Below, piece after piece: positions 8,211-33,962 of a DNA stretch of 64,000 nucleotides. The stretch is from a virus. Lineage: Duplodnaviria > Caudoviricetes. The notes under the pieces were generated by a model. It was not told the origin of the DNA. It saw only the letters and a program-made list of their open reading frames with translations, and ran no database searches. Location of the stretch: the IMG/VR virus record IMGVR_UViG_3300037501_000255; one strand, written 5' to 3'. The stretch's first letter is position 1. The number at the start of each line of letters is the position of its first letter. A program made the position numbers and the translations under genes.

Positions 8211-8250
8211 GTCTCTCTCCTGTATGCGCAAAGACCCTGCGCAAGGTGTT

Positions 8251-8507: not shown

Positions 8508-8557
8508 TGTCTTCTCCCAAATAAAAGGCCGTAAAATCTTGTTTTTGTTTATTTTTC

Positions 8558-8632
8558 CCGGGACTTGGGACCCGGCCCCTAAGAGTCTCCCAGGGGGGCC
8601 TTACTAGGGGTTTACCCCCTAGCCCTCGGTCA
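8558..8632 (-). ncRNA. Twister-like ribozyme candidate, copy 2
   Basis: GAG-GG/P1/UAA, P3, P4 CCGGG-UCCCAAGU-CCCGG; L4 CC pairs with GG after GAG (covaries with copy 1). Confidence 0.6.
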
Positions 8633-8818
8633 GCGGCGGGCCGGCAGGCCCACACCCAGACGCTCACGACGCCAGAAGAACCGGCGACGGATCGTCTCCT
8701 CGAACACGTCGGGCCGCTGGCCCTCGGGGACCGAGTAGGTCACACCCTCCACCGAGATCATGCCCTCGGACAGCGGCTTACAATCCTCGGTCCGACGGCG
8801 GATGAAGGTTGCGGTCAT
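8630..8818 (-). CDS. Hypothetical protein (first ORF of left arm)
   Basis: 62 aa ORF with AGGT RBS; stop overlaps twister-like copy 2. Confidence 0.6.
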   Translation of the reverse strand: MTATFIRRRTEDCKPLSEGMISVEGVTYSVPEGQRPDVFEETIRRRFFWRRERLGVGLPARR

Positions 8819-8829
8819 GTTGCACCTAT

Positions 8830-9555
8830 CTGCGTTCCCCCAGGGTTATCCCAGGGTCCTACGGCTTTAGACGTAGCTTAGGCCCATTAGTGCAATGCAC
8901 CGGCGTATCTCCTACTAGTCAGTCCCTCACCCTAAGGCATCCCCTAGGGTCAGTAGACACACCCCTACCGTGGACCGCTTCGGGCAGTCAAGCTAGTGTC
9001 ACACCCTTTCGGGCTAGCTTCCTTTTGTAGTGGCGTTTTCCTTTAGGTGCCAAAGGATGCGCGGTCACTTGTCTAGGCAGACAGACCGGCTCACACGCTA
9101 TGGCATCGGAGACTTGCCGGTGTCCCGATTAGCTTACTGTTTCGCTTTAGCCTTTACGTTTGGGAATAGATGGGGCTAGCTGGCAATTGGGTTAGGGAAG
9201 GAACCTAACCGCGTTGCTGCTTGCCCGGTTCGGCTAGGTAGCGTGGCCCGTATTGCCTCGCTTCCCTAACCCATCCTAACCCCTTTCGGTTAGGCGCTAG
9301 CTAGGGATCTCTCCCGTAAGCTAGTCGGGGCACCTTATTACGCCAGCCCTTTCGGACCGACTACGCACACGCCGCTTGCGCGGGATGCGTGGGGGATTCC
9401 GGGCTATCTAGACCCGCTCCTACCCTACTATACTTCCCTTTATGACCCGACCAGGTTAGTGAAACCGGATCTGATCCTATCGGGCTTGGGCCGTCCCGCT
9501 ACCGCGTTCCGCCCGTAGCGGTGTCACCCGCTAGCACCTTGTCATCGGCGCACCC
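8830..9555 (-). ncRNA. Large highly structured non-coding RNA (GOLLD/ROOL size class, unassigned)
   Basis: No long ORF; more than 12 hairpins including GNRA loops (GUCC-GAAA-GGGC, CCUAACC-GAAA-GG..GUUAGG, CCGC-GCAA-GCGG, GGGA-GAGA-UCCC, CCC-GAAA-GGG) and long-range GGGUUAGGGAAG/CUUCCCUAACCC. Confidence 0.65.
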
Positions 9556-9606
9556 TTTATTATGATTCAATCGGGTTAGTGAAAAGAGATCTAGATCTAG
9601 ATCTAG
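9436..9606 (-). promoter_or_regulatory. Duplicated promoter-like motif TTTCACTAACC-N8-TCATAA plus (GATCTA)3 palindromic array
   Basis: Two copies about 120 bp apart, each preceded by GATC-A/TAGATC; AGATCTAGATCTAGATCT at 9587-9604. Confidence 0.45.
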
Positions 9607-10228
9607 CGTACCTTATCGCACACATTCCTACATGTAGGAGGGGGTAGGGGGGTGTAGGTCCCACCGAGAATGCCTCCAAACTACCCAGTTACACTTTTTT
9701 CCACTCACAAACTCTATAGTATATCACTATCTTTTCTATAGTCTAGCGCTATCTAGGTACTGTGGGAGTCATCCGTAATTAAATCACACATATTTCCAAT
9801 AGCTTTCCCCTACCTTATACGGTTGCTCTCTTATATTAGCTACGTGGGCGGGTGGCTCTATGTGAAAAATACGGTTGGTCTAGGGATATGGGGGGGGGGG
9901 TGATGGTAGCTGTTGCGGGAGACCTGAGCCTATGCGTGAACGGTGGTATTGGGGCGGTTTTTGTCGTGATTTTAATAGGGCGGGAGATTCTGCTTTTCAG
10001 CTATATGATGATGTTATAATGGTGGGTTTGAATTCTTCCGGGGATTTGGTACGTGCCGGAGATTGTTATCCTATGGTGGGTATTTTTGTGTGTCATGGTA
10101 GTACTTTTTGTCAGGAATATTATCATGTTCAGCAGTGTGCAGCTGGATTCTATACGTAACACTTGGATGAGAGTGGGAGTATTATTTGGATTGAAGGCTA
10201 GGCTGGCCTAGATTTTGGTGGGAGGGGT

Positions 10229-15161: not shown

Positions 15162-15770
15162 ATGTATAATGTTATTGGCGATATAGCTGGACAGTTCAAG
15201 ACTCTACAGGCTCTAATAGCCAAAATGCCGCAGGGCACTGTGTTGAGCGTAGGCGATATGATTGATCGCGGCCCTCGAAGCAATGAGGTTGTGGAATTTT
15301 TTATGAATGGAGGTGGGGAGGCGCTTCGTGGCAATCACGAAGATCTCTGCCTGGAATTCTATAGGCCTACTGGCAGGTATCACCCTACAGATTGGCACTG
15401 GAATGGTGGAGATGCCACCGAACGCGCATGGGGCGGACGAGTACCAGACGTCGCGCTGGACTGGATGGCATCGCGTCCCTTATACAAGGAGATTGAGGCC
15501 GACGGCAAACGCTTCTTCGTAAGCCATGCATTCGTACGCTGGGATCGCGGTGGGCTGACCGCACGCGAGGAAACGTTGATGTGGAATCGCTCTATACCCG
15601 TAGCAAATCCTGCGTACGATTTACAGATCTGCGGTCACAATTCACAATTCGGATTGCAGTACTGGGGAAATCCCGCCTATGCAGTTTGCATAGATACTAG
15701 CCGCAATAACGTACTGACCGGTATTCGCCTACCAAGTGGGAAAATCTATGAACAAGCGTATATCGATTAA
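15162..15770 (+). CDS. Calcineurin-like metallophosphoesterase (PrpA/NinI-type)
   Basis: GDIAG (H to A variant of GDxHG), GDMIDRGP, RGNHE, SHA, CGHN. Confidence 0.88.
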   Translation: MYNVIGDIAGQFKTLQALIAKMPQGTVLSVGDMIDRGPRSNEVVEFFMNGGGEALRGNHEDLCLEFYRPTGRYHPTDWHWNGGDATERAWGGRVPDVALDWMASRPLYKEIEADGKRFFVSHAFVRWDRGGLTAREETLMWNRSIPVANPAYDLQICGHNSQFGLQYWGNPAYAVCIDTSRNNVLTGIRLPSGKIYEQAYID

Positions 15771-15774
15771 ACCA

Positions 15775-15951
15775 ATGCGTCCAGTGAATTTACCTGACCG
15801 TGACCAGGTATTTGAAATTATGAAGGCGCGCTCTCGTCAGATAAAGGGTATCACAAATCCATGTAGCGAAATTGCACTGGGCGAAGTTCACGAGTGCTAT
15901 CTTGACCAAGAAGAGATTGTTAACTCTAATGACTTTGAATGGGGAGAATGA
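15775..15951 (+). CDS. Mini-protein with acidic-aromatic C-terminal tag (NDFEWGE)
   Basis: Short ORF coupled to the phosphatase. Confidence 0.6.
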   Translation: MRPVNLPDRDQVFEIMKARSRQIKGITNPCSEIALGEVHECYLDQEEIVNSNDFEWGE

Positions 15952-16169
15952 TGTTTTATGCGCGGCTGGTATATGCGTGAAATCGTAAGTCTAGGTGTTG
16001 TCAATTCCGTGAGGGAAGATAATCTCATTTAAGTACGACCCAGACCATATTTCCATACATCCAATACCTAAGAATTGGTGGACGCTGGAGGAGCTTAATG
16101 ACGACAGAGATTCGGATCTCGAGTGGCTCGACAAGCCAAACGTTGGAGCTGATACGTAATTTGAGCGAA

Positions 16170-16394
16170 ATGACTCGCGCAATAGCAGATACCCATTCGC
16201 TTAATCCCGATATGATACAACAGCTGGGTGAATCAATGGCGTCGCCCATACGGCGAAATCTAGACTATACAGTCGTTGCCAGCAGACTCTTTGCGGTAGA
16301 CCCCCTGCCTGATGGTGCAAATCCGCTATTCTTCGAAGCAATTGAGGAAGTTGAGGAGATTTTTGATGGTGCCGACGACTTCACCAATGAGTAG
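16170..16394 (+). CDS. Major-capsid N-terminal-segment-like mini-protein with acidic tag
   Basis: LGESMASPIRRNLDYTVVASRLFAVDPLPDGANP resembles MCP segment LAQAMANPIRRNLDYQGIARRALVVDPLPQGALP (recalled); ends EEIFDGADDFTNE. Confidence 0.7.
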   Translation: MTRAIADTHSLNPDMIQQLGESMASPIRRNLDYTVVASRLFAVDPLPDGANPLFFEAIEEVEEIFDGADDFTNE

Positions 16395-16686
16395 AATACC
16401 AGAGTTTTGGCTATATTGCAATGATGCCGACTATGTCGATATTAAGTGGAAGGATCCCGCCTTCCCTTATGATGTGGGGTGGTACCTGCTGGATTGCATA
16501 GGGCGTCCCAGATTTGAAGCAAAGTTAATATCCCAATACACCCGAGATATCTATATTCTATTGTCCGATGTATGCCAGCGAGGATTATTGTGGCGCCTCA
16601 GAAATGCATGGGTGTGCCAGCCGTATATCTGGGATGAACTTGGCTATCCAGATTTATCTGATGGAGATTTTGTATTCAATGAGTAG
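16387..16686 (+). CDS. Hypothetical mini-protein (MSRIPEF start, acidic-aromatic end)
   Basis: ATGA-coupled; ends DLSDGDFVFNE. Confidence 0.7.
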   Translation: MSRIPEFWLYCNDADYVDIKWKDPAFPYDVGWYLLDCIGRPRFEAKLISQYTRDIYILLSDVCQRGLLWRLRNAWVCQPYIWDELGYPDLSDGDFVFNE

Positions 16687-17089
16687 AATTCCTGATTTTC
16701 ACGTGCGACTCGATGCGAATAGAATCGGTGTAGAGATCGACTTTCGCGATAATTTTCTAAATGATGGAAGTAGTAAGCGCACTCTGCTGGAACACATATG
16801 CGATAAGTGCGAGTGGTCTTTTATTGGTCGCCCAACGCACGGCATAGTGCAATTCGCAGAGGCGGTTATTACTGAGGAGTTAAATTATCTAGTGGCTATC
16901 GGTGCACTATGCCGCAGAAGTGATGGTTTTTGGGTATACAATTACAAAACCACAGAACGCAGAGAGCGCAAATATCGAGAGCACAATCCATCTAGTGATT
17001 GGTACAAACCTATACGAAATAGGCATGTAGATCCTGAGGAGGTTGTTGAGACCTTTGCCGGGGCTGAGGACTTTGAAGATGCGGCCTAA
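16679..17089 (+). CDS. Hypothetical protein (MSRIPDF start, acidic tag)
   Basis: Ends ETFAGAEDFEDAA. Confidence 0.7.
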   Translation: MSRIPDFHVRLDANRIGVEIDFRDNFLNDGSSKRTLLEHICDKCEWSFIGRPTHGIVQFAEAVITEELNYLVAIGALCRRSDGFWVYNYKTTERRERKYREHNPSSDWYKPIRNRHVDPEEVVETFAGAEDFEDAA

Positions 17090-17240
17090 GCTTAAGTTAG
17101 TAATCAATGGCTTCTCTACTGGCGTATTCCTCACGCTATTTTTTGTTACACTCGCACTAGGCATGAATCCCGCGCTCTTCTTTATTGCCGCTATGTTGAC
17201 TGGCGGACTTGTAGTGCTGGGATTAAACCATGATATCTGA
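17079..17240 (+). CDS. Small two-TM membrane protein
   Basis: Two hydrophobic helices. Confidence 0.6.
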   Translation: MRPKLKLVINGFSTGVFLTLFFVTLALGMNPALFFIAAMLTGGLVVLGLNHDI

Positions 17241-17492
17241 CTTATCAGAGCTCAGGCTAATACAGGTCGGTGGGGCGTATTGGAATCGTGGACTGTGCGC
17301 GTCGTTACAAATGAAGATGAGCTGCGGTTCGTAAATTCTGTGAGCAGTACGCGCATTCTCGTGGTCACGCCGTAGATGCGGAGTATCGAGGGATACATGG
17401 ATTCAACATATTGTATACCATAGACTTTGCATCAGTACATAGGACTAACTCAGATGGAGCTGTGAGCCGGGCTGCTATGAGGTACGTGCTCG

Positions 17493-18293
17493 ATGAAACA
17501 GGCAATGGGAGCATTAATGTTGGGAGCAATGATTGGCGATATTATTGGGTCGCCCTACGAATTCAACAATATACACACTACTGAGTTTCCTCTCTTTAGT
17601 GACAAGTGTAAGACTACCGACGACACCGTTTGCACGGCGGCTGTAGCATGGAAGCTTGTGCATGGCGGCGCCTATGAAAGCCGTCTTGTAGAGCTGGGGC
17701 AACGCTACTACGACAAAGGTTGGGGCAAGAAATTCGCGGATTGGATTAACGATGAGCAACGCAAGCCTTATTCAAGTTGGGGTAATGGAGCAGCAATGCG
17801 CGTTAGTCCGATCGGTTGGTGGCACTCGGACTTGCAGTCTGTACTTACAGAGGCCAAGGAGAGTTGTTTGTGCTCGCATAACCATGAAGATAGTTATACT
17901 GCTGCGCAGGCTGTGGCAGGTAGTATCTTCAAATTGCGGACCGGTTCCTCTAAGGATGAGGTCCGCACATGGGTAGCTGAGCAGTTCGGCTATGATCTAA
18001 CCCGTAAACTCGATGATATCCGTCCAACATTCAAATTTGAAGTATCATGCGCGAAGAGCGTGCCTGAAGCTATTATCGCATTTCTGGAGGGAAACTCATT
18101 TGAGGAGGTGGCTCGGTTGGCAGTCAGCCTTGGTGGAGACTCTGACACAATATGCGCCATAGCCTGCTCTTTGGCCGAGGCGTACTTTGAAGTGCCTACT
18201 ACAATACTGGTAGATGCATCACGTTTTATAGAACCAGAAATTATACACATATGGACGGAGTATACCGAAGCAGTTATACGGAGGCAGGCATGA
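17493..18293 (+). CDS. ADP-ribosylglycohydrolase (DraG/ARH family)
   Basis: GAMIGDIIG, TTDDT, GNGAAMRVSP, SHNH, GGDSDTICAIA. Confidence 0.93.
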   Translation: MKQAMGALMLGAMIGDIIGSPYEFNNIHTTEFPLFSDKCKTTDDTVCTAAVAWKLVHGGAYESRLVELGQRYYDKGWGKKFADWINDEQRKPYSSWGNGAAMRVSPIGWWHSDLQSVLTEAKESCLCSHNHEDSYTAAQAVAGSIFKLRTGSSKDEVRTWVAEQFGYDLTRKLDDIRPTFKFEVSCAKSVPEAIIAFLEGNSFEEVARLAVSLGGDSDTICAIACSLAEAYFEVPTTILVDASRFIEPEIIHIWTEYTEAVIRRQA

Positions 18294-18895
18294 GTGGCCT
18301 AGCAATTGTACTGTCGGGTCCCAGCGGCTGTGGTAAAACAACGCTAAGTCGTCTTATACTTGACAGTAGCGACAATATGCGTGAGAGCGTATCTTATACT
18401 ACCCGCCCCCCTCGACGCGGAGAAGAGGACGGCGTGCATTATCACTTCATAGATCAAGCGCAATTCAATAGGATGTCGGATGACGGCGAGTTTATTGAAT
18501 CAGCAGAAGTCCATGGATTTAGCTACGGCACGGGCGCAACCTCAGTTAAAACTCAATTGCAACACGGGCATGACTTATTGTTCATATTGGATATTGTCGG
18601 AGGTATGCAGATGAAGAAGTCTGTTGATGCTGTGACAATATTCTTGGTGCCACCGCATATCAACTCATTAGAGGAGCGCCTAATAAGACGCGGAACCGAC
18701 AGTGCTGATATAATCCAGCGTAGAATGAGCACTGCGCGGGATGAGATCCGACGTGGCGTAGCATCATATGACTACATAATACACAATAACAAACTAGAGA
18801 CTGCGCTTAATGATATTCTTGCTGTAATACGCACTGAGCATCTCAAACGTGCTCGCAGAGAAGATATCATTAAAAGCTTAATGGAGCATATATGA
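18290..18895 (+). CDS. gmk: Guanylate kinase
   Basis: SGPSGCGKTT, SVSYTTRPPRRGEEDGVHYHF, EVHGFSYGT, YDYIIHN. Confidence 0.95.
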   Translation: MSGLAIVLSGPSGCGKTTLSRLILDSSDNMRESVSYTTRPPRRGEEDGVHYHFIDQAQFNRMSDDGEFIESAEVHGFSYGTGATSVKTQLQHGHDLLFILDIVGGMQMKKSVDAVTIFLVPPHINSLEERLIRRGTDSADIIQRRMSTARDEIRRGVASYDYIIHNNKLETALNDILAVIRTEHLKRARREDIIKSLMEHI

Positions 18896-19203
18896 AGACG
18901 GACTCTTTGGCTGACTATACGATTAGAAATTGGAGCGACTCGCTGGATAGTTTCTGTTTTGATCACAATATATCCAACTCTTATTACTACAAAGAGCGTT
19001 CCGAGTATTTTTCAGGGTATCTAGATCATAATAAGATAGCCGGGGTGCTCAACGATCATCATGATAATATGGAGAAGCGGGTTAGGGCTCCTCTAGCAAT
19101 CTGCGATGTAGCCTTTGAGCGCATAGCCCATATGGATAGAGCTATCGAGAGTCTGCGGGTAGAGATTGCGAAACGTGATGATGAGATGTCCACTATACGA
19201 TAG
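18892..19203 (+). CDS. Hypothetical coiled-coil protein (last gene of + arm)
   Basis: Coupled to gmk; frame continues past TAG to 19248. Confidence 0.6.
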   Translation: MKTDSLADYTIRNWSDSLDSFCFDHNISNSYYYKERSEYFSGYLDHNKIAGVLNDHHDNMEKRVRAPLAICDVAFERIAHMDRAIESLRVEIAKRDDEMSTIR

Positions 19204-19274
19204 GAGATCCGCGAACTCGATGAATTGCGTGCATTGTCTGATTTAAAATAGACGCGGGTTGGCAGCGGCCGGCA

Positions 19275-19769
19275 TCAAGAGGGAAGGTTCGCCTTCCCTC
19301 TTCTTATTGCCTCAAAGGCTTCGGCTAGCGATAGAACTCCGGTGCGGTTCATCCACAGATAAATACCGTGCTCATAACACTTGCGACATTCTGATGGTGT
19401 AGCTGCTGGAATGTCTAAAACGCGGAGCGGATGCTGAGACTGGCGCAGAGAAACGGGAGAAAGATCGTAGCGGCTGCCTGCGCATGTGTACCCCATATCA
19501 TTTACTACCACCCTATACTCTTCATCGGGTTCACTTAAACTCTCTAAAGCATATATTGGGACATTACTGGCAAAAGCTAAGATTTTATCAGCCACACGTA
19601 AGCAGTACGGAATATTGGAATTAGGGCTAAGACTGGCTACAGTGATATCTCTTAGGGCAGAAAAGGAGTGTAGCGTCTCTCCTGGAAATTCAGCATTAAA
19701 CCCCATTCCTAAATCAAAATACCGCTTGAAGTAGTGATCTGCCAAAATGCGTCTAGTTCCAGGTATCAT
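19275..19769 (-). CDS. Hypothetical protein
   Basis: 164 aa ORF. Confidence 0.65.
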   Translation of the reverse strand: MIPGTRRILADHYFKRYFDLGMGFNAEFPGETLHSFSALRDITVASLSPNSNIPYCLRVADKILAFASNVPIYALESLSEPDEEYRVVVNDMGYTCAGSRYDLSPVSLRQSQHPLRVLDIPAATPSECRKCYEHGIYLWMNRTGVLSLAEAFEAIRRGKANLPS

Positions 19770-20076
19770 ACCATCCCCCGCCTACTAATGCCTGAAATTC
19801 ATCAGTATTACCTATATTATATACACCCTGACCCGCTCTACGTAGCTTAGTAGCTAATTCCTGCTGCATGTGGCCGGGGCCGAGAAGCAGATGGATATCT
19901 CCCGGCAATTTATTGTAGAGATCATCCATTACAAATTCTGCGTTGAAGATAAGACTACTATCATATACATATGGAGAGCCGTCCGCAATGTATGCTGGTA
20001 TGAAGTTGCGACCTTCGGGTATCTTCGGGCGACCAAAGACCCTGCAGCTAGCGACATCAATGAGGATGTAAACCAT
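19753..20076 (-). CDS. Hypothetical protein
   Basis: 107 aa ORF. Confidence 0.65.
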   Translation of the reverse strand: MVYILIDVASCRVFGRPKIPEGRNFIPAYIADGSPYVYDSSLIFNAEFVMDDLYNKLPGDIHLLLGPGHMQQELATKLRRAGQGVYNIGNTDEFQALVGGGWYDTWN

Positions 20077-20078
20077 GC

Positions 20079-20597
20079 TTAGATTCCAAGATATTGTTCC
20101 CTTACTCTATCTAAAAAATCATAATGCGTTTTTGGCCATCTCGGTCCATTGTTGAGGTGTTTTGGATACATATCTCCGGCTATGGCTCCATAGGCAACGT
20201 GTATCAATTCGTGCCCCAGAGAGGTACAGCTGGCATCTTTACAGTCTGGAGGTACGTAGACGTACATTCTAATCTTGCCATGCTCAGGAGGATACGTAAG
20301 TCCAAATAGTGCCGATGTACCGTCCGGGGTCCGAAAGATATGTGGTTGCCAGAAGATTGTCAATTTATTTAGAGCCAGGCGCAATGCCTGGCTATCATGC
20401 GGGAAGATCGGCTCCTCATTCCACATGTACTCGAATGTTAGTATGTATTGCTCAAAATCCATGCTAGGCGGCGGGGCGCCACAATATGAGATATCGTATG
20501 AACTCAAATGCTGTGTTGGGGTGCAATTGCGATATTCCGGAATATGAGCGACGCAGCTACATAAGAAAACCACTAGGAAAAGGAGTATGTTCCTCAT
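20079..20597 (-). CDS. Lipoprotein, putative zinc metallopeptidase
   Basis: Lipobox LCSC; LGHELIH (HExxH). Confidence 0.65.
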   Translation of the reverse strand: MRNILLFLVVFLCSCVAHIPEYRNCTPTQHLSSYDISYCGAPPPSMDFEQYILTFEYMWNEEPIFPHDSQALRLALNKLTIFWQPHIFRTPDGTSALFGLTYPPEHGKIRMYVYVPPDCKDASCTSLGHELIHVAYGAIAGDMYPKHLNNGPRWPKTHYDFLDRVREQYLGI

Positions 20598-20629
20598 TCC
20601 TAGTGGTATATTTTTATTGAACGATGGTC

Positions 20630-20917
20630 TTATTCCCAGACGGCTGGGTCATACTTGTCAATTTCTATGAAGTCCTTATATGTATACCCATCAGTAATCT
20701 GAGTATCTGAATTGAATTTCTCTAGTACAGAGGGGTGTATCATCCCGTAGGCGCTGCCGTCAGTGTATACACTCACAAATAGAACTTCTTGTAAGTCCTT
20801 AGTAACATTTTCTGATGCTGTAAACAATATACTTGGATCAAATTGACAATAGAATACTCTTTCGCCTGCCCTTAGAGGTTCACGCGCTTTTATTAATACC
20901 TGTTCAGGATGGTTCAT
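20630..20917 (-). CDS. Hypothetical protein
   Basis: 95 aa ORF coupled to map. Confidence 0.6.
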   Translation of the reverse strand: MNHPEQVLIKAREPLRAGERVFYCQFDPSILFTASENVTKDLQEVLFVSVYTDGSAYGMIHPSVLEKFNSDTQITDGYTYKDFIEIDKYDPAVWE

Positions 20918-21665
20918 GTGTTAATATCTCCGCTTTATTATTTCCTACCAATATAGTATGTTCGGCCTGAGCTGTTAGGCTGCCAGACACCAGAATGGCC
21001 TCCCAGGCATTTCTGAATGTTATCTTAGAATCGCCTTTACATAGAATGGGCTCTATTGTAAATATCATTCCAGCCTTAAGTCGCACTCCGGTATTGGGTA
21101 CACCATAATGTGGTACGTATGGCTGCGTATGAAATTTCCTGCCTATACCATGTCCAACAAATTCCTTAATTATAGAATATCCTTTTGAATTAGCATGCTG
21201 CTCAATGGCCGCCCCAAGAGAGCCGAGGTATTCGCCTTCAACTGCATGACTTATGCCCACATCCAAGCACTCCTCAGTCACTGCAATTAGCTCCAACGCT
21301 TCTGCGCTGCACTCGCCTACAGGAAAGGTGCGCGATGTATCTCCATGATAACCATTGAAAATGGGGGTAACATCTATATTGATAATATCTCCCTCGCGTA
21401 AAACTACTGCGTCCGATGGTATGCCATGACAGACAACCTCGTTAATACTGGTGCAAATATGAGCGGGGAACGGAGCGTATCCCCCTTGGGTATACCCAAG
21501 GGGTGCTGATGTTGCCAGCGCCTCGCTGGTCCATTCAGCTGCCAGGCGATCTAATTCGCCTGTAGAAATGCCCGGACGTACACATTTGCCCAGATACGCG
21601 AGGAGTCTGGCAGCCAAGCGTCCAGCTCGGCGCATACCTCTAATATCCTCTACTGTAGCTAGCAT
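20904..21665 (-). CDS. map: Methionine aminopeptidase type I
   Basis: CTSINEVVCHGIP, GDIINIDVT, GYHGDTSRT, FVGHGIG, FTIEP, AQAEHT. Confidence 0.95.
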   Translation of the reverse strand: MLATVEDIRGMRRAGRLAARLLAYLGKCVRPGISTGELDRLAAEWTSEALATSAPLGYTQGGYAPFPAHICTSINEVVCHGIPSDAVVLREGDIINIDVTPIFNGYHGDTSRTFPVGECSAEALELIAVTEECLDVGISHAVEGEYLGSLGAAIEQHANSKGYSIIKEFVGHGIGRKFHTQPYVPHYGVPNTGVRLKAGMIFTIEPILCKGDSKITFRNAWEAILVSGSLTAQAEHTILVGNNKAEILTHEPS

Positions 21666-22001
21666 TCATACCTTTCTTCTGGGACGCAGCATTTCGCTCA
21701 TAGACATCTCGTCTTTAGTTATGAACTTCGACGCCAATTCGCGCATACGCTTCCTGCTGCGCTCTTCTAGATGGTCAATCAACTGCCCTACACCTTTGTC
21801 TAAGCTACGCAGCTGTAAAGTGTCCCGTAATGTATGCAGACCGATATACCTCATGCTGTTACTCATCTCGTCTATAAGAGCATCTGGAGATGCCTTGGGA
21901 ATATTCAATAGTGAGACAACTCGCGCCTCGTCTGAAAATACCCTATCATATAGGTTGTCCAATACTTCTCTTGCTAATTCAAGCTTTTCCTCGTGAGTCA
22001 T
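21666..22001 (-). CDS. Hypothetical protein
   Basis: 111 aa, GGAGG RBS. Confidence 0.7.
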   Translation of the reverse strand: MTHEEKLELAREVLDNLYDRVFSDEARVVSLLNIPKASPDALIDEMSNSMRYIGLHTLRDTLQLRSLDKGVGQLIDHLEERSRKRMRELASKFITKDEMSMSEMLRPRRKV

Positions 22002-22025
22002 TACTACCTCCGTATAGATAGTAAT

Positions 22026-22535
22026 TTATGCATTGCCCCATGCACGATCAATCTCGTCGGCGATTTTGTTAAGCTCAGCTTTTAGCGCATCCCTTTTCTT
22101 TTGTAGATCTAGGATCTTCTTCTGCTTCTTAATTTCTGCCAGCATTCGCTTCTTTTCTTCGGTAGGCAGGCTTTCCCATCGCGTATGTTCCTCGAGCGCG
22201 CGCTCGTACTCCTCATATCGCTTTAGGTAAGCCTCTTCTGATTCTGTAAAGACATGCTGTTCTATTGCAATTGAGTTATTCTGTGAGGCCTTGCGCACAA
22301 CGACTCGCTCCATATCTAGACCCAGGGCCTTGGCCTCCGCCAGCAATTTTTCAATGAAAAGCTTTAGCGGCACACCCGCCTGCTCCTTGCGCACATAACG
22401 TCCATTGGACCACTCCAATTGTGGATCTGGACCTAGGGCAGCTGCAAGCAGCTTTTTAGCAAAAGCTTTCATCTTAAACTTGCGCTGCGGCTCAATCGGG
22501 CGCGGAGTTGATGGTGGGAGAATAATATTTTCCAT
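22026..22535 (-). CDS. Hypothetical coiled-coil protein
   Basis: Charged helical C-terminus. Confidence 0.7.
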   Translation of the reverse strand: MENIILPPSTPRPIEPQRKFKMKAFAKKLLAAALGPDPQLEWSNGRYVRKEQAGVPLKLFIEKLLAEAKALGLDMERVVVRKASQNNSIAIEQHVFTESEEAYLKRYEEYERALEEHTRWESLPTEEKKRMLAEIKKQKKILDLQKKRDALKAELNKIADEIDRAWGNA

Positions 22536-23090
22536 AGTTTTCCTCTAAGTATTTCTTTATTACAAATGCATGACCTGCTCGGTCATTAGGATCATCGAAA
22601 ACTTCATCTAGCGTTTGAGTAGTAATACTGCTGTCAAAATCAAATAACCATACATCGGTAATGGTCAGAATATCAGCTAGAGTTTGTAACTCACGGGTGC
22701 AGTAGCGATCTAACTTCTGCTCGTATATCGGTATATATATCTTCTTGCGAGCATCGACATATGATAATTTACCTAGACCATTTATATATGAGAATTCTGG
22801 GCGGGCGCCTTTACCCATTGGATACCGATGCGGTTTAAAATCAGCCAATCCAGCATCTCGCCAGGCCAGCCAGGCTTTGGAATTGTCGACATGTTCCGCG
22901 TAGCACTTGGTAAATTGCCAGAAATTCTCGACATTATGCGCGGTCAAATCATACAACCCAAGCGGCCCATGATTCATGAAGGGGAAAAAGCCTTGCCAAA
23001 GTCTGTTGATGTTGATGTTGTGTTGATTTTGAATGCGTTGGGCGGGATAGCTGCGCGGTCTTTTGGACCCCAAATATGTATGGTATGCAT
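22492..23090 (-). CDS. DUF6939-like phage protein (1-nt frameshift near 22981)
   Basis: NVENFWQFTK, HRYPMGKGARP, LSYVDARKKIYIPIY, LFDFD; true N-terminus MHTIHIWGPKD in the adjacent frame. Confidence 0.7.
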
Positions 23091-23395
23091 CATGTATCCC
23101 CGGCAGTAGCCTTCGCTACTGCCTCTACAATCATCTCAAAAGCCTGCTTATTTCTTCCGCGCGCATTTGGAGGATACATATCAAAATCCCCCACATCTTG
23201 CAGCACTGCCTTGCAAGCGGCCAGCAAGTCCGGAGCCGCAACGATAAGGTTGATATTTGCCCTAAGATTCTGGTTGCCATCTTCGATATTGAGCAGTCGT
23301 AAGCCATGATGATTGCTGTCGCGACCAGAATACAATCCCAGACCTTTGCCGTGCGCCTCAACGCTCCACGGTCCCGGCGTGTGTGTAAAGCTCAT
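23090..23395 (-). CDS. HTPGPW-family phage protein
   Basis: HTPGPW...ANINLIVAAPDLLAAC. Confidence 0.8.
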   Translation of the reverse strand: MSFTHTPGPWSVEAHGKGLGLYSGRDSNHHGLRLLNIEDGNQNLRANINLIVAAPDLLAACKAVLQDVGDFDMYPPNARGRNKQAFEMIVEAVAKATAGDT

Positions 23396-23408
23396 AATTC
23401 CTCCCGCG

Positions 23409-23964
23409 CTACGCGCATATTGCTCTAAAGGTTAGATTGATGCGTGGCTCGGTTATCCTTTTACGACGCGGAAGAGCATGTTTCCAATACTCCTGAGTAT
23501 GCCCACGCATGATTAATAGGCTGCCATGTCTTAGCTGTATCTTTAGTTCATTCGGCTTATACTTGTGTCTCAAGATGAAGTCCCGGGCAATACCTAGGCT
23601 GAGGCTTGCTATGATAGGATTTCGTCCCAATTCCCGCTCATCGTCTGAGTGCCATCCGACAGTGTCATTGCCATCCCGATACTTATTCAGTAACACCGAA
23701 TTGAAAGCAGCCTCGGACACTTCCTCTATTTTACTTTTCAATTGAAGCAAAGTTGGCGTCCACGGAAGCGGCAACAGTGGTATGCCTGACCAAGTATATG
23801 CACATCCTGGGTCGCCGTACCACTGTTGTAAGCGTGGCAATGGATGCGTTTTGTTGTAAATGGTGATATAATCCTGGCGCCATGCAAAAGCAGCATCAGC
23901 CTCAGCTGCTAAAGGAAGTTCTCGATTAGTTCAATGCCCCATCTATAATTGAGAGTTGTGACAT
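23409..23964 (-). CDS. alkB: AlkB/ALKBH2-3-like 2OG-Fe(II) dioxygenase (5' part frameshifted)
   Basis: PRLQQWYGD, FNSVLLNKYRDGNDTVGWHSDDE (HxD), HALPR, RINLTFR; N-terminus in shifted frames. Confidence 0.88.
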
Positions 23965-23981
23965 ATAGTTAAGCTTCGATA

Positions 23982-24360
23982 TCAATCATCCCAATCAAAA
24001 TCTGCTGCAGCTGGAAGTTCCTGTATCATTTCAATAATTGCTTTAATTAAAAGTATCTTCGGAAACTTCTAATTCCCTATTTTCAACTTTGACATAGCAA
24101 TGTATCATGCCGCTGATAGTCTCTAATAATCCGCCATATGATGATGATAGGAGGGGAATGGTGTCTCGCTCCTGTCGTACTGATTTTACAATTGCTGGAT
24201 TGTTTGCGATGCACTCAATCAATTGAGACTCAAGCTCAGCCCAATCGCATATAGATCTCCAGTCGGCCTGAGATGTGAGGGGTTTATCTGGGTTGATAGA
24301 ATGTTTCTCTAGGATGTTGCGCAGCTCTTCACTCGTCCGCCCATTCAAAGTCGTCGACAT
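23982..24360 (-). CDS. Hypothetical protein with acidic tag (needs -1 T near 24048)
   Basis: ORF 24043-24366 continues as LIKAIIEMIQELPAAADFDWDD* in the next frame. Confidence 0.55.
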
Positions 24361-24700
24361 ATTCAAGTTCCTCCCGCTCTACTTGTTCAATTTCCAGTTT
24401 AGCACCAGGGGCAGATGTGCCTATGCCAATAAAATCCACTCCAATCTCTGGTCGTGCAAGCATCTGACCAACGAAATGCGGTTCGCTAACCGCAAATACT
24501 ATTCCTGGCGGAATAATGCGTGAGACAATAAGGTCTGCACCGAAAACCGAAGCGAATTGTCCAGACCTTACCAGCTCGGCTGCTACCACAGCGCCCGCTT
24601 GAACGCCATCATGAATCTCCGGCAAAGGTTGCCCATTCAGCGTCTGCGTGTCTGCCGGTACGTTTACAAATGACCATTCAGTAATATCATTCAAAGTCAA
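24329..24700 (-). CDS. Major-capsid C-terminal-segment-like mini-protein with acidic tag
   Basis: ELVRSGQFASVFGADLIVSRIIPPGIVFAVSEPHFVGQM resembles EILQTGLYGHIFGADIIVSKVVPAGTAFACADPEFVGVM (recalled); ends EYVDDFEWADE. Confidence 0.7.
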   Translation of the reverse strand: MTLNDITEWSFVNVPADTQTLNGQPLPEIHDGVQAGAVVAAELVRSGQFASVFGADLIVSRIIPPGIVFAVSEPHFVGQMLARPEIGVDFIGIGTSAPGAKLEIEQVEREELEYVDDFEWADE

Positions 24701-24905
24701 AATACTCTGCGCCAGCGAAGATTTCCTCAGCCTCTTCTCGCGTCAGACCTAGATTGGCCAGCTCGGCATCCGAGATATCTGCGGCTGCACTATATCTATC
24801 CATGATATTGAATATTCGTTTGCGAATATCACATATTCTTATTGTTGGCTCAACAACAATATAAAATTCTGGAATAAGTACTCTTTTACCTTTTATAAAA
24901 TTCAT
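24687..24905 (-). CDS. Major-capsid middle-segment-like mini-protein with acidic tag
   Basis: IKGKRVLIPEFYIVVEPTIRICDIRKRIFNIMDR resembles VFGDRVTVPEFEVVSNPTVRIAEVKRRRFNVIDR (recalled); ends EEIFAGAEYFDFE. Confidence 0.72.
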   Translation of the reverse strand: MNFIKGKRVLIPEFYIVVEPTIRICDIRKRIFNIMDRYSAAADISDAELANLGLTREEAEEIFAGAEYFDFE

Positions 24906-24908
24906 ATC

Positions 24909-25253
24909 TTATTCCATGTAGGGCACTGCATGGCCAGACGAAACCATTAGTTCATTAACTGTGGTAACATCACCAACTGTTGGATCTGTAAGATATATTT
25001 GCCCCAGTAGCCTTCCGTACTTTTCAGACTTGTCTTTAAAGGTGCGTATTAAGACATCTTTATTTAGTATCTGAGCGGAAAGAAAGTCCCTCGCCTCTAG
25101 TCCGGCAAGCTTCGTGTCTCCACGCAACTCTGGGGCATTAATGCCATATAGCCTAATCGGCCTCTCGATCGAGACGAAACAACCTAAGTCTAGCCGTGCT
25201 ATGCACGAATCTCCATCGTAGACAGATAAGATTTTTGCTTTATACAGATACAT
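24909..25253 (-). CDS. Thermonuclease (SNase) family protein
   Basis: VYDGDS, RLYGINAPE, EKYGRLLG. Confidence 0.92.
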   Translation of the reverse strand: MYLYKAKILSVYDGDSCIARLDLGCFVSIERPIRLYGINAPELRGDTKLAGLEARDFLSAQILNKDVLIRTFKDKSEKYGRLLGQIYLTDPTVGDVTTVNELMVSSGHAVPYME

Positions 25254-25254
25254 A

Positions 25255-25668
25255 TCAACTCCACTTTGCATTTACAGATGGAACCAATTCGCGTTTGGTT
25301 TCGGCAATTTTATCATATGCCAGTCGGAATGTATCCCCCTCTATGCGAGCCAGGTCTAGCAATTTTTGTGCAACAGCAGATGTGGCCAATGCTACCCTAT
25401 CATCTTTAATAACCAATTCACGACCAGCTTCCGGTGCAACCTTGGACATCCATGCCATTGAGGCTGCCCAGCCCGCCACTACATCGGGGAAGTAATTAAT
25501 AACTAGCGGCTCATCTAATGTCCACTGGGTTAGGCAACCAATGCGATTTAGCCGGGCTAGAGCAAGAGTGAGAAATGTGTCTAACTCAGTATCTAGGAAA
25601 ACAACTTGCGCGTCTGCGCCACCAAGACGAACTAGTAACATGTTTTTGAGTGCTTGTGAATTGCGCAT
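25255..25668 (-). CDS. Diverged head-completion/neck-like protein
   Basis: VFLDTELDTFL..AL..LN...E.GRELVIKD resembles jumbo-phage neck protein VFDDE.L..FL..AL..FN...EKGRDFTISD (recalled). Confidence 0.45.
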   Translation of the reverse strand: MRNSQALKNMLLVRLGGADAQVVFLDTELDTFLTLALARLNRIGCLTQWTLDEPLVINYFPDVVAGWAASMAWMSKVAPEAGRELVIKDDRVALATSAVAQKLLDLARIEGDTFRLAYDKIAETKRELVPSVNAKWS

Positions 25669-25933
25669 ACTATCTCCGTTAGTGATTTGATGAGCCCGTC
25701 TAGTTCGAGCCCAGAGACTCTGTAACCCTTTTTTGTTGGAATTAATCTTATGTTGCAGCCTAAGTAAATGTCTATACCGACATCTAGTAGCGTAGGATGT
25801 TCCCACGGAGTTATCCTACACCCGTAGGGATGCAGAATCTCTTGTAAGCTTATGGCATCACACCATATGTCGTCCGTCCTACGTCTTGGACGCAAAAGAA
25901 AGTTATGCAGAGCTTTGCGGTCAGCCCTATCCA

Positions 25934-26206
25934 TCATCGCAGCTTAGATGCAAGTTCCTCATATCTGGCTTTGGACTGGGCGCCAATAACCTGATCTACC
26001 ACTTGCCCATCTTTAACACCGACAACCATTGGTATGCTTCGAACGCCAAATGCACCGGCGGTCTGATGATCCTCATCTACATTGACTTCTATTAAGTCAA
26101 GTCCATTACTAGCTGCTACGTCTTTTACCGTGGGCGCAACTACATGGCATGGCTGACACCATGGCGCCCAAAATTTAACTATGGCTGTTTTATTTGAAAA
26201 GTTCAT
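25934..26206 (-). CDS. trxA: Thioredoxin
   Basis: FWAPWCQPC, NVDED, GVRSIP. Confidence 0.93.
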   Translation of the reverse strand: MNFSNKTAIVKFWAPWCQPCHVVAPTVKDVAASNGLDLIEVNVDEDHQTAGAFGVRSIPMVVGVKDGQVVDQVIGAQSKARYEELASKLR

Positions 26207-26208
26207 AT

Positions 26209-26802
26209 TCACCATCCTTTAGGCACATTGCCGTGCAGACATGTAATTGTATTGGTGTACCACGGCATTGACATGAGACTCTCACCTTTAGAGTTCCTCC
26301 CCTCATCATCCGACCATGAGGGCTCCTGTCCCGGCTTTATTGAGTGCAATCCTGACTGGAATGGACCGATAATAAATGTGTGCGCCGCTACCCTACACCC
26401 TAAGAAGTTTGCCAAGTCTACAGCAAACTTCTTTCCAATACGTCCGTTGAATGTTGAGCATGTTCTGAACCACACTAGTGAATTACTGTGCAGACGATCT
26501 TTTAATACCAGCAGATCGTTATGAAATTGATGTCCAGGGATCAACGCATCTGCTGTTAGCGGGGTGCCATCAATATAGACCGAACCCGGACTGCCGTGCC
26601 CCCAGAATTGCCATACATCGATCTTTTTGTCTGGCTCAACGGTACTTAGCCAATCGAACGCCTCGCGCCATGAGGAAGCAGGCCGAACCAGATCCAAGGT
26701 TCGAAAGAGCTTATATAGCTTACCCCCAGCAAACCACGAAGTGGTAAGCCCTTCACCTGCCCAATCTGTATCATCGTATGTCATCAAACGTATGCCGGTC
26801 AT
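26209..26802 (-). CDS. DUF4347/caspase-like (clan CD) protein
   Basis: QFWGHGSPG and VWFRTCSTF (His-Gly / Cys dyad). Confidence 0.65.
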   Translation of the reverse strand: MTGIRLMTYDDTDWAGEGLTTSWFAGGKLYKLFRTLDLVRPASSWREAFDWLSTVEPDKKIDVWQFWGHGSPGSVYIDGTPLTADALIPGHQFHNDLLVLKDRLHSNSLVWFRTCSTFNGRIGKKFAVDLANFLGCRVAAHTFIIGPFQSGLHSIKPGQEPSWSDDEGRNSKGESLMSMPWYTNTITCLHGNVPKGW

Positions 26803-27053
26803 TTCCCCTCCGCTTTTAATTGCCGCATAAAAGCCTCTATGGCTCTACTATTAGTTGTTACTGTGTTGCACTTATATGTCAAAAGCATGTTTGTTATTTG
26901 CTGCCCTAGTTGATTATTTACATGGATAATTGGGCCTATGCTACAGCGATAGGTCTCTTCGGTTGCAAGGGCGCCATCCCTATTTCGTACCACGGTCATA
27001 CGCAGCAATTCACTTGCATCCATCAGCCTGATACTGTATTTTGCATCTGCCAT
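26799..27053 (-). CDS. Hypothetical protein
   Basis: 84 aa coupled ORF. Confidence 0.6.
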   Translation of the reverse strand: MADAKYSIRLMDASELLRMTVVRNRDGALATEETYRCSIGPIIHVNNQLGQQITNMLLTYKCNTVTTNSRAIEAFMRQLKAEGK

Positions 27054-27317
27054 TCACTTATCCCAATTAAAATCCCTGCTACACTCAAGTGCGGCAAGGC
27101 GCTCTTCGAGATCTTCCAGTTTTTGCGCCAACTCCTTGACTGAAATCTGAGCTCCATCAGGCATATTTAGCACAATATGGCAATTATCTCCGCTATAGGT
27201 AATGCCTGAATCTATAGTGAATTTATTATTAGTATAATATAGCGAAGAGTATCCGCACGGGAGCAGGGAGCCGCTCTGTGTGTCAATGCCTATAACTAAT
27301 TCTTTATCACTAATCAT
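27054..27317 (-). CDS. Mini-protein with coiled coil and acidic-aromatic tag
   Basis: KELAQKLEDLEERLAALE (tail-chaperone-like coil), ends RDFNWDK. Confidence 0.65.
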   Translation of the reverse strand: MISDKELVIGIDTQSGSLLPCGYSSLYYTNNKFTIDSGITYSGDNCHIVLNMPDGAQISVKELAQKLEDLEERLAALECSRDFNWDK

Positions 27318-27772
27318 TCCACTCTCCTGAAATATTTGATTGCCGAGGCCTTATCTATTACAGGTGATATTTTGAATAGGTGTATATCCATAACTGCGCC
27401 GAATTTCTTTCCAGAAGTAGTCTTTAAAATATCATCTGATTCCATATCATCCAACATACTTTTAAAGAAGTCCGGATGTACCACCTCGCCAACCTCGGCC
27501 TCTTCTGGATGGGTTAGGTAAACGAAACATGGTAACCGATAATTGATATAGTTCTCTCTTGTGGATGGCATCTTTAGCAACTCACCGAACTCTACCCGAT
27601 ATTCGCGATGATCTGGCAGTGCCTCAAGAGCCTGCATGACTTGGCGACGCAGATGCTTTTCGATATCCAGGTCAATTTTATTGGACATCTTCTTGATGCG
27701 AGCTACGGTAGCATGCGGGAGAGATATTTCGGCTAATTTGAAATACGTATCTGGTGTAATCTGCATTTTCAA
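27314..27772 (-). CDS. Hypothetical protein
   Basis: 152 aa coupled ORF. Confidence 0.7.
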   Translation of the reverse strand: MKMQITPDTYFKLAEISLPHATVARIKKMSNKIDLDIEKHLRRQVMQALEALPDHREYRVEFGELLKMPSTRENYINYRLPCFVYLTHPEEAEVGEVVHPDFFKSMLDDMESDDILKTTSGKKFGAVMDIHLFKISPVIDKASAIKYFRRVE

Positions 27773-28758
27773 ATCCTATCTGGACGGTCAGATAAGGTAA
27801 TAGATACTGTGTTTGGCACACTATCGGTGATCGCATTTGCGAATGCTTCCTCGCTATCGAACTGTAGAATTGAAATTGCAGTCTTCAATTTCCACACATT
27901 AGCTTGGCGTAGTACATCCATTTTATTGATCAGCAAGTCTGTAACTCCCATGCGTCTAACGATTTTGGATAAATGGTCGATGTCAAGGTAGTTGCATTGG
28001 CGGCGGCGGCCGGTTGTAGCACCATACTCATGCCCTAGGTCTCCCAATAGGTCAAGAGTCGGATCACTTTTATCCTGAAAAGACCGCGCACCCACATATG
28101 TATCATAAGCTTTGGCAACGCCAATAACCTTACGTATTGCAGTATGGGGGATGCCATTATTTATCAGCGCCCCAACTCCGCAATGAGATGAGGTAACATA
28201 TGGATACTCTTCACTATCGATATCCAGCCCCATCGCCTGGGCACCCTCGGCCAATACGACTGCTGAGGCATTTTGCTCTACCCATTCATTCATATCTACC
28301 AGGTATGGTTCAAGCACTGCGGATGTTTCCGCGCGACGGCCAATACGGGCATATTTGTCGCGATAACATGGTCCCACGCCTTTACGCGTAGTGCCTATCT
28401 TTGACTCGGTCTGCTCTTCTTGTCTGTGAGCGTCCGTAACTATGTGGGTATTCTTAGCTACTTTCACTAGGGCATGGATGTTGGGCTGGATTGATAGTAG
28501 CTCATCTAGCTCAGATATAAAGTCCGCCTCATGGACAACGCAGCCGGGCCCTATGACTGACGGAAGTCCGAAGATAGCCCCAGTTGGAACTATGTGCGTT
28601 ACAATCTTCCTGCCATTAACGTAGATTGTGTGCCCAGCATTGTGTGAGCCATTGAAACGCATTGTATGAGTATAGACGCCGGATTTGGCCAATTCGGCTG
28701 CCAGCTTGCCCTTTCCTTCATCGCCATACCTAATACCACCTAGAAAATCAACTATCAT
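27769..28758 (-). CDS. purA: Adenylosuccinate synthetase (short type)
   Basis: GDEGKGK, NAGHT, GTTRKGVGPCY, EGAQ, YPYVTSS, GATTGRRR, NKMD. Confidence 0.93.
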   Translation of the reverse strand: MIVDFLGGIRYGDEGKGKLAAELAKSGVYTHTMRFNGSHNAGHTIYVNGRKIVTHIVPTGAIFGLPSVIGPGCVVHEADFISELDELLSIQPNIHALVKVAKNTHIVTDAHRQEEQTESKIGTTRKGVGPCYRDKYARIGRRAETSAVLEPYLVDMNEWVEQNASAVVLAEGAQAMGLDIDSEEYPYVTSSHCGVGALINNGIPHTAIRKVIGVAKAYDTYVGARSFQDKSDPTLDLLGDLGHEYGATTGRRRQCNYLDIDHLSKIVRRMGVTDLLINKMDVLRQANVWKLKTAISILQFDSEEAFANAITDSVPNTVSITLSDRPDRI

Positions 28759-28952
28759 ACATTCACCTGTTCTGAGGGTAGAGCTTCGCAAAACTTGATC
28801 ATTTGTGCTGTTCGACCTGCCGCACGTTCCTTCAACATGCGATTGATAGCGTGGCCTTCCTTCATATAGACCCAGAACGTTTTTTCTTCCGGTAAGGACA
28901 CGACGAATAGATTCTCCGGTTTGATGCCGGAGTGCTTCATTTGATTTGCCAT
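28755..28952 (-). CDS. Hypothetical protein
   Basis: 65 aa ORF. Confidence 0.55.
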   Translation of the reverse strand: MANQMKHSGIKPENLFVVSLPEEKTFWVYMKEGHAINRMLKERAAGRTAQMIKFCEALPSEQVNV

Positions 28953-33166: not shown

Positions 33167-33883
33167 TTAACCTATACGATTAATTTCAAATACTGGACTA
33201 CAATCAACCTTGTCCTTTCTTACATTCGAATGAAATAAATATGTGGCGCTCGGTATCTTTTGGAAATAGTCAAATGCTTTTTCTTCATTTATTTTAGATA
33301 ATGGGATGCCATGCTTATTACACAACTCTTTAGTAAGATAGTTTATCGATTCATACTGAGCGTCCGTTAGTGTAGCGTAGTACGAATATCCCCTATATGA
33401 CAATTGCTTATAAAATTCAGTATCAGATTTACTACAGTATGGTTTGCCATACGAATCAATAAGCACATCTGGATCTGCAGATGACTCAGATAGCGGCCCT
33501 ATGCAAGATGCCTCTATAGCTATCGAGCGTGGTGACCATATCGAATTCGGCGCAGATGTGTTGCTGCCAAGGTGATACGACCAGCATGACGATGGAAATA
33601 GCTGATATATCGTACCGTCACGTGCCACGACAAAAGCCGTGCTAACATGAACGCCTGGCTGCGATAAGGTGCCGATATCTCCTGGCAACACACCGTGAGT
33701 TAGGTGCTGAAAAATCTTAGTTTTTTTTACATTTTCTCCGTAGAAGAAGTTTGAGCTATCATTTGTTTTCAAACGAATCACGTTATGAAATTCACCTTCC
33801 GATGCCACCCAGCGTTTACCATATGAATCAACAAGTGTAGACTTAAACTTTTTTTCTATATCTGCGAGTTTATATGCGCGCAT
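33167..33883 (-). CDS. N-acetylmuramoyl-L-alanine amidase (Amidase_2-like)
   Basis: FQHLTHG, STAFVVARDGTIYQL, WSYHLG, SIAIE, HSNVRKDKVD; start MRAYKL after GGAGG. Confidence 0.8.
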   Translation of the reverse strand: MRAYKLADIEKKFKSTLVDSYGKRWVASEGEFHNVIRLKTNDSSNFFYGENVKKTKIFQHLTHGVLPGDIGTLSQPGVHVSTAFVVARDGTIYQLFPSSCWSYHLGSNTSAPNSIWSPRSIAIEASCIGPLSESSADPDVLIDSYGKPYCSKSDTEFYKQLSYRGYSYYATLTDAQYESINYLTKELCNKHGIPLSKINEEKAFDYFQKIPSATYLFHSNVRKDKVDCSPVFEINRIG

Positions 33884-33962
33884 GCGTACCTCCATATCAT
33901 ATTCTGGTGATATATATCTGAATATATTAGTAACTACGTACGGATTTTTTATTGGAGATGTC

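Follow-up and report, generated by a model that had tools for sequence, protein, structure and literature searches.

The window analysed here is the whole 64,000-nucleotide stretch of the IMG/VR record IMGVR_UViG_3300037501_000255; its source is an uncultured freshwater giant phage which encodes a TubZ-like tubulin, a UvsW-like helicase, DnaB- and DnaC-like proteins, a ribonucleotide reductase (RNR) and PhoH. An accessory island of ~12 kb extends from a Metallophos phosphatase gene (15162-15770) to purA (27769-28791), and its two gene arms meet convergently near 19.2 kb. Eight small genes of this island, designated g1 to g8, encode proteins with a similar acidic-aromatic C-terminal tail; they form two tandem clusters, and the island houses all tagged genes of the window. 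The tails had been noticed in a first-pass annotation made from the sequence alone, and all eight C-termini quoted there were confirmed in place, the one at 23982 being reached only via a +1 shift. Of the genes called in the 64-kb window, 52 lie outside the island and not one of them has the tag, nor was it found in G001, an overlapping 42.8-kb IMG/VR relative whose tubulin is 92% identical and which spans only 39.8-64 kb of the window.

The genes g1 to g4 are located on the plus strand. The product of g1 (15748..15951, 67 residues) ends EEIVNSNDFEWGE and contains in its body a fragment of the RNR finger loop, TNPCSEIALGEVHECYL. A BLASTP comparison of g1 with residues 295-311 of the RNR of the window gave an E-value of 2e-4, and phrog_367 was matched with E = 0.021. 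The fragment (15853-15903, +) is a 17-residue copy of the catalytic finger loop, which reads TNPCGEIILSEYDSCRL in the RNR of the window. The RNR of a 259-kb relative contains an intein with a LAGLIDADG endonuclease, and the finger loop would be a plausible homing site. The g2 protein (16098..16394, 98 residues) is an N-terminal fragment of a major capsid protein family with a long-form tail, EEIFDGADDFTNE; it matched phrog_2522 ('major head protein') with E = 4e-5 over positions 41-93 of the 318 in the profile. It is followed by g3 (16387..16686, 99 residues), a paralog of g4, whose product ends DLSDGDFVFNE, and by g4 itself (16679..17089, 136 residues), in which a body modelled as folded (residues 1-102) and a linker (106-129) precede the tail VETFAGAEDFEDAA. 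The starts of g3 and g4 had at first been placed too early. The true starts, MSRIP[ED]F, are at 16387 and 16679, where the ATG overlaps the preceding stop codon (ATGAGTAG), and the genes called independently on a Logan contig of identical sequence have the same starts.

The genes g5 to g8 are encoded on the minus strand. The body of g5 is an open reading frame (ORF) of 107 residues at 24043-24366, and its tail, which extends to 23982, is read in another frame. A +1 shift within the run ACTTTTAAT is required to reach it; 20 codons then follow and end ELPAAADFDWDD. This DNA of the window is known from one sequencing run, probably that of the source sample, and no RNA run was listed for it. The g6 protein (24329-24700, 121-123 residues) is a C-proximal fragment of the major capsid protein family with the tail EELEYVDDFEWADE and matched phrog_2522 with E = 4.6e-5 at profile positions 232-282. 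Its features in the Atlas lean weakly to capsid families, and an AlphaFold2 model built from two sequences reached a predicted local distance difference test score (pLDDT) of 34. In g7 (24687-24905, 72 residues) the long and the short form of the tail are combined (EEIFAGAEYFDFE), and g8 (27054-27317, 87 residues) encodes a beta-rich N-terminal part, a helix and a tail ending LECSRDFNWDK. No matches to enzyme domains, OB-folds or helicases were found among the carriers.

From the aligned C-termini, the short form of the tail can be written as [DE]-F-x-[WF] followed by 0 to 3 mostly acidic residues and the long form as EE-[IY]-F-x-G-A-[DE]-D-F; the fullest version is EE-[IY]-F-x-G-A-E-D-F-E-W. 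Every carrier of the window has 1 to 3 further residues after its final aromatic. The pattern [DY]F.[WF] occurred 7 times in 17,099 sites of the 83 genes called in the phage part of the window. Four genes, or six if g3 and g5 are counted, had it no more than three residues from the stop, compared with an expectation of 0.066 (Poisson P = 8e-7) and a mean of 0.07 after shuffling. A looser form of the motif was present at the C-terminus of 6 among ~7200 ORFs of unrelated metagenome loci, a background set from a metagenome scan keyed on MetAP which consists mostly of bacterial genes. At the DNA level, GAYTTYNNNTGG was found at six sites in the window, four of which are these tails. Of the 12 acidic C-termini in the window, only those in the island have the aromatic pair. 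Two other ideas were rejected: that the tails arise where translation continues past a 5' exon into a group I intron, since the genes abut and leave no space for an intron, and that the tubulin carries the same motif, which is absent from it.

The codons used for the conserved F, D, G, A and E differ among paralogs as well as among orthologs. In the long-form tails (g2, g4 and g7) F-x-G-A-[DE]-x-F is kept with differing codons at nearly every conserved position (TTT/TTC, GGT/GGG/GGC, GCC/GCT/GCA and GAC/GAG), and in the short-form tails GAC/GAT and TTT/TTC vary. Of the eight carriers, five (g2, g3, g4, g6 and g7) have the start of the next gene inside the DNA that encodes the tail or overlapping the stop codon of the tail. 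Furthermore, an 11-base identity, GACTTTGAATG, is common to g1, g6 and g7, and part of the similarity is therefore due to common descent and compact gene packing. The genes g5 and g8 retain D-F-x-W without an overlapping downstream start, which together with the varied codons argues for selection on the peptide. In this respect the proposal of a portable element held: the tail is selected as a peptide and is written with different synonymous codons.

Contigs of two g4 orthologs, found by an exhaustive HMMER search, provided two relatives of the window, L088 and L089, which are syntenic and span the whole island; the comparison therefore covers three genomes, all metagenomic. Housekeeping neighbours are mostly 45-90% identical to those of the window, the tagged proteins 27-53%. 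Conservation of the tails in homologs had been chosen beforehand as the point on which the idea could fail, and indeed the tails are conserved in L088 and L089. The g4 orthologs (P0124 and P0125) are 44% identical and their tails, ETFEGADDFEDVA and ETFEGSGDFSCDVD, are conserved but the preceding linker is not; g4 and both orthologs retain ETF-x-G-[AS]-x-DF. Between the window and L088, 9 of 12 tail residues of g4 are identical, compared with 3 of 25 in the linker before it, which also contains indels, and 39% in the body. The g2 ortholog of L088 (3398-3664) ends EESFDGAEDFSDG and matched the same phrog_2522 profile (E = 1.4e-3). A gene of L089 at the position of g1 (725-886) looks like a short g2 ortholog and ends DDDIEEFSFED, a short form. 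Since g2 has the long form in the window and in L088 and the short form in L089, the two forms are versions of one motif. A g1 ortholog was not detected in either relative.

The other carriers gave a similar picture. The g3 ortholog of L088 (3621-3938) ends EKDFLF past a 5-residue indel, and the g7 ortholog of L088 (9807-10016, 53% identical) ends EEYFAGAEDFEW, in which both forms are fused and the consensus put forward in the first-pass annotation, E-x-F-x-G-A-[DE]-[DY]-F-[DE]-[WF], is complete. At the g7 locus of L089 (6913-7128, minus strand, beside an SNase gene) a 71-residue body without detectable similarity to g7 ends DSDFMWEE. The g8 orthologs end DKEFKW (L088, 11929-12213) and GRDFDV (L089, 9236-9511), and the intact g5 ortholog of L089 (6180-6449) ends GGDFTWSEE. 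A tail is retained in nearly all tagged genes of the two relatives, and in the orthologs of g2, g3, g5, g7 and g8 the end [DE]-F-x-[WFV] is kept despite directly adjacent indels; in g3 and g7 the indels abut the motif without disrupting it.

The g5 tail is interrupted in two of the genomes. L088 9205-9813 encodes a protein whose C-terminal half is homologous to g5, and an in-frame TAA stands 25 codons ahead of the end ELPDTDDFEWSDE. In this stretch (9205-9290, minus) the stop lies five codons upstream of the position equivalent to the +1 frameshift of the window (23982-24066, minus). Beyond the interruptions both tails are intact and similar (IKAIIEMIQELPAAADFDWDD and IKVLEFHVELPDTDDFEWSDE), and the L089 gene is uninterrupted; recent independent losses, recoding or errors could each account for this. 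An aromatic is the last residue in each of the three short-form tails that are uninterrupted in L088, compared with none of six in the window (Fisher P = 0.012), and the lone L088 tail with extra residues is the one severed by the stop codon. This is a weak hint, only suggestive with three genomes compared, that tail ends may change in a coordinated fashion within a genome.

Possible variants of the tail were seen in three further proteins. A family of 91-92 residues, encoded on the plus strand of L088 (4485-4760) and L089 (1430-1708) and absent from the window, where an ADP-ribosylglycohydrolase gene replaces it, ends NTWNWE and NQWEWQ, respectively; these ends look like a Trp-x-Trp variant of the tail. 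Two genes on the minus strand of the window are weak candidates. The first (20630..20917, 95 residues) ends KDFIEIDKYDPAVWE, and its tail, DP[AS]VWE(D), is retained in L088 and L089; since the whole protein is 57-60% identical, its tail is not set apart from the body. The second (19753..20076, 107 residues) ends GGGWYDTWN, and its orthologs end EGWHDSW (L088) and DIPYDDYI (L089), which are aromatic-acid-aromatic ends in a different register.

An AlphaFold2 model of g4, computed from the g3/g4 family alignment A4, had a mean pLDDT of 71. Residues 1-102 reached pLDDT values of 75-90 and were modelled as two hairpins and three helices in a winged-helix-like order, so that the body is possibly winged-helix-like. 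A Foldseek search with this model gave no significant match; many of the weak rows were winged-helix regulators. Confidence was low for residues 106-136, with a pLDDT below 50 at 106-129, and linker and tail are read here as disordered. A conserved motif at the end of a linker that varies in sequence and length, as in g4 and past the indels also in g3 and g7, is what would be expected of a short linear motif that is tethered by a disordered segment. The hairpin region of g4 (residues 73-91, window 16895-16951, +; GALCRRSDGFWVYNY) also matched seven repeats in P0126, a protein of 3500 residues (E = 2e-13), and may represent a single repeat of some giant surface or RHS-like protein.

The tail is real, selected as a peptide, conserved across three genomes and separable from the body. 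We propose, with a probability of roughly 60%, that the tails are a short linear docking motif for one common partner. The motif would consist of an acidic stretch of ~8 to 13 residues with two aromatic anchors, its long and short forms being interchangeable between orthologs, and would hang from a variable linker, flexible at least in g4, on small, fast-evolving accessory proteins. The aromatics may plug a hydrophobic pocket with basic flanks on the common partner, and capsid fragments, a winged-helix-like domain and a coiled-coil protein would thereby be gathered at one place. Candidate partners are a replisome ring or hub of the phage, the procapsid, a protease or a host protein, and the chance of any one particular partner being the right one is low. 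A degron read by a protease could be a special case of the docking model. A bolder version, which we consider a long shot, is that the island is a kit of tagged decoys or adaptors assembled out of parts of proteins essential to the phage itself (capsid in g2 and g6, the RNR loop in g1). Such a kit might act in counter-defence like proteolysis-targeting chimeras (PROTACs) or as an inter-phage weapon, each body binding a target that the tail would pass on to a single effector of the phage, such as a protease; targets might be a host immune sensor of capsid protein, the assembling capsid of a competitor phage or an enzyme subunit.

Several points weigh against a docking motif. No partner was found and no carrier has a known function that points to one. 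The comparison is limited to three metagenomic genomes, and confinement to the island is valid for the 64-kb window only. Window g5 and its L088 counterpart are cut off from their tails by a frameshift and a stop codon, respectively, and the 0 to 3 residues past the last aromatic argue against a reader of a free carboxylate at a fixed position. Finally, several carriers have a common ancestry (g3/g4, g5/g6, the patch in g2 and g5, and GACTTTGAATG in g1, g6 and g7), so that part of the tail sharing is inheritance and not independent recruitment.

This ancestry corrects the earlier description of the carriers as eight unrelated proteins: the bodies fall into about five or six groups, some of which are linked by duplication or fission. 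As seen in the family alignment A4, g3 and g4 are paralogs. In L088, g6 and g5 make up a single gene, 176 codons long; in the window this gene is split, and g6 there terminates with a tag of its own at the very point from which the L088 protein continues into the g5 body. The g6 homolog of L088 (9283-9813) matched phrog_2522 with E = 1.4e-7 at profile positions 228-288; g2 and g6 are different parts of one capsid protein family, and their L088 orthologs match PHROG 2522 independently. Fragments of this capsid family (PHROG 2522, profile 41-95 and 228-288) persist as separate small genes in related phages. A 16-residue N-terminal patch is common to g2 and g5, and an N-terminal IP[ED]F[WHY] patch to g3, g4 and g7. 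All of this, together with the two tandem gene clusters and the occurrence of GACTTTGAATG in three genes, would fit carriers that are one old, fast-diverging paralog family in which the tail is simply the best-kept segment, retained for folding, self-association or stability and without any docking. We regard this as unlikely. An all-against-all BLASTP of the carriers detected tails and short patches only, except for g3/g4 and g5/g6, and homology along all carrier bodies was not found; across the groups there is no detectable body similarity and the kinds appear distinct (capsid fragments, winged-helix-like, coiled coil). In addition, the g4 tail is parted from the fold by a non-conserved linker that was modelled as disordered, an intramolecular structural role across different folds is improbable, and the g7 locus of L089 bears the tag on a dissimilar body. 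The modular docking peptide of the first-pass annotation is therefore retained in part: the tail is portable, is conserved past a diverging linker and body and is found on the dissimilar L089 body, but the bodies behind it are not eight unrelated ones.

If the tail is a docking motif, the closest known sequence pattern appears to be the clamp-binding tail of phage T4. T4 gp43 ends EKASLDFLFG, and in DNA ligase a loop with the sequence LDFLF fits into a hydrophobic pocket of the clamp gp45 (PMC6212786). The hydrophobic-acidic C-termini of gp43, gp33 and gp55 dock on gp45 and are interchangeable (PMC2988020). The likeness comprises a D-F-x-[FY] core at or within one residue of the C-terminus, a flexible linker, unrelated carriers and one reader. 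The tails could accordingly dock the mini-proteins on a processivity clamp of the phage or the host as regulators or competitors of replisome or late-transcription factors. In favour of this, the core D-F-x-[FW] follows the same pattern and the g3 ortholog of L088 even ends KDFLF; the T4 tails are also acidic as well as hydrophobic, are located no more than one residue from the end and can be exchanged for each other, and a variable distance to the C-terminus is tolerated as in T4. However, the Leu before the Asp is missing, and the middle residue is mostly polar (E, D or N) where T4 has three consecutive hydrophobics. The T4 peptide [ST]-L-D-F-L-[FYL] was not seen in the window, where N, D, A, R or G precedes the D and the x position is taken by E, D, N or V. 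Furthermore, Trp is often the second anchor here, the upstream F-x-G-A is often present, and the carriers are small and are neither polymerases nor sigma factors nor other replication proteins. A sigma-like protein (39802-40362), which ends TPLRDYL, and the DnaB-like helicase (49504-50958), which ends SSENDGD, are without the tag. No clamp or DNA polymerase gene was seen within the 64 kb, and the absence of a tagged polymerase or late transcription factor is only partly informative in a window in which no DNA polymerase gene was found. Docking on a clamp is thus improbable, as far as the present window goes.

A second known class comprises the tails of T7 gp2.5 and gp4 and of bacterial SSB (DDDIPF), in which an acidic run and a C-terminal aromatic plug a basic and hydrophobic site on replisome partners. 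These tails end exactly on the aromatic and their free carboxylate is read. The tails described here differ in that 0 to 3 residues follow, two aromatics are present and the carriers are not SSB or helicase. In the window no tail ends on the aromatic, but in L088 W or F is the final residue of three tails, and the position is therefore variable. A tag on an SSB or helicase-primase was likewise not seen, the DnaB-like helicase being without one.

The tail could also be a capsid-targeting or packaging signal which binds the procapsid interior or the scaffold, in which case the mini-proteins would enter the heads and be delivered along with the DNA. Two of the carriers consist of fragments of a capsid protein, and the carriers are small, diverse and located within a variable island. 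Encapsulin cargo-loading peptides are an example of such an address, by which unrelated proteins are docked on an HK97-fold shell via the same C-terminal peptide. In phage 80alpha the scaffolding protein and CpmB of SaPI1 bind the capsid protein, an HK97-fold shell protein, via the same C-terminal 16 residues, a shared helix-and-hook (PMC5644958). The internal proteins of T4 are diverse and fast-evolving, are encoded at a variable locus and share only a terminal address peptide of ~10 residues (PMC3012670), in which they resemble the small, diverse accessory proteins of the island. However, the signal of T4 differs in sequence, stands at the N-terminus and is cleaved off by the head protease, whereas the tag is C-terminal, and the peptides of 80alpha/CpmB and of encapsulin cargo are basic-hydrophobic (RIIK) or rich in Gly, Ser and Leu, not acidic-aromatic. 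Moreover, the island is surrounded by genes of nucleotide metabolism and is distant from those of the head, and a late-promoter signal was not detected. On balance we consider delivery into the head rather unlikely.

By far the least probable explanation is that the tail is a DNA-level element, either a gene-junction cassette in which a stop, a ribosome site and a start serve translational coupling, or a linker for recombination, with the peptide similarity as a by-product: the five overlapping starts, the near-identical DNA of the g2/g3 and g3/g4 junctions with ATGAGTAG at both and the TTG or ATG starts within GACTTTGAATG at g7/g6 and g6/g5 would fit, but different codons specify the conserved amino acids, g5 and g8 keep D-F-x-W without an overlapping start and the peptide motif of the orthologs persists despite changed DNA and spacing, so that this reading looks refuted as the main cause, although the common short DNA may help tails to shuffle between genes.

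A docking motif would be of interest since shared terminal peptides wire many phage proteins to one hub, examples being the clamp of T4, the polymerase of T7 and capsid targeting. The tag is carried by about a quarter of the island genes in this giant-phage clade, no carrier has a known function, and finding the reader of the tag would give a pathway to the whole gene block; it would also explain why fragments of the phage's own capsid protein are retained. Being short and portable, the motif is a possible handle for pull-downs and reporter targeting in these uncultured phages.

Searches beyond the three genomes returned few relatives. Among cultured phages (INPHARED) neither a megablast of the region nor a tblastn search with g6 gave a match, and in word-index protein searches g6 and g8 matched only themselves, g8 in an index of 5.8 billion proteins. 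IMG/VR contained no match for g6, g4, PurA, the ADP-ribosylglycohydrolase, the alignment of a 152-residue island protein described below or the back-translated invariant peptide, and G001 was the one relative that it yielded. With the pattern F-x-G-A-[DE]-D-F-[DE], a stop followed within a few codons in 37 among the 119 IMG/VR matches listed. At least 30 IMG/VR loci (for example L091 4341-4736, plus strand, and L094, L098 and L103) encode a family of ~131 residues that ends EEAGTDD[SA]FTGADDFEAD, on contigs of mostly 4-60 kb with split Pol III-like and UvsW-like genes as neighbours. No other protein in those loci has the tail, the family has no annotation and an Atlas search with a marine member was uninformative. 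The same tail chemistry thus recurs in this unrelated phage group, in which the tail may be easier to study.

Directly upstream of g8, a gene on the minus strand (27314-27772) encodes the 152-residue protein, which is 90% (L088) and 75% (L089) identical in the relatives and is the best-conserved gene of the island. It has no family match, its Atlas model is poor and an Atlas search with it was uninformative. Scans of the window for promoters and terminators gave results at chance level, and the candidate late-promoter word TAYNAATW showed no pattern near the tagged genes. Elsewhere in the window, a free-standing gene with a faint LAGLIDADG match (33882-34994, plus strand) lies on the strand opposite to its neighbouring genes. 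The first 10 kb (1-10000) have a G+C content of 55-59%, compared with about 45% elsewhere, and contain few convincing ORFs and a tRNA-Leu gene (3089-3174, minus strand).

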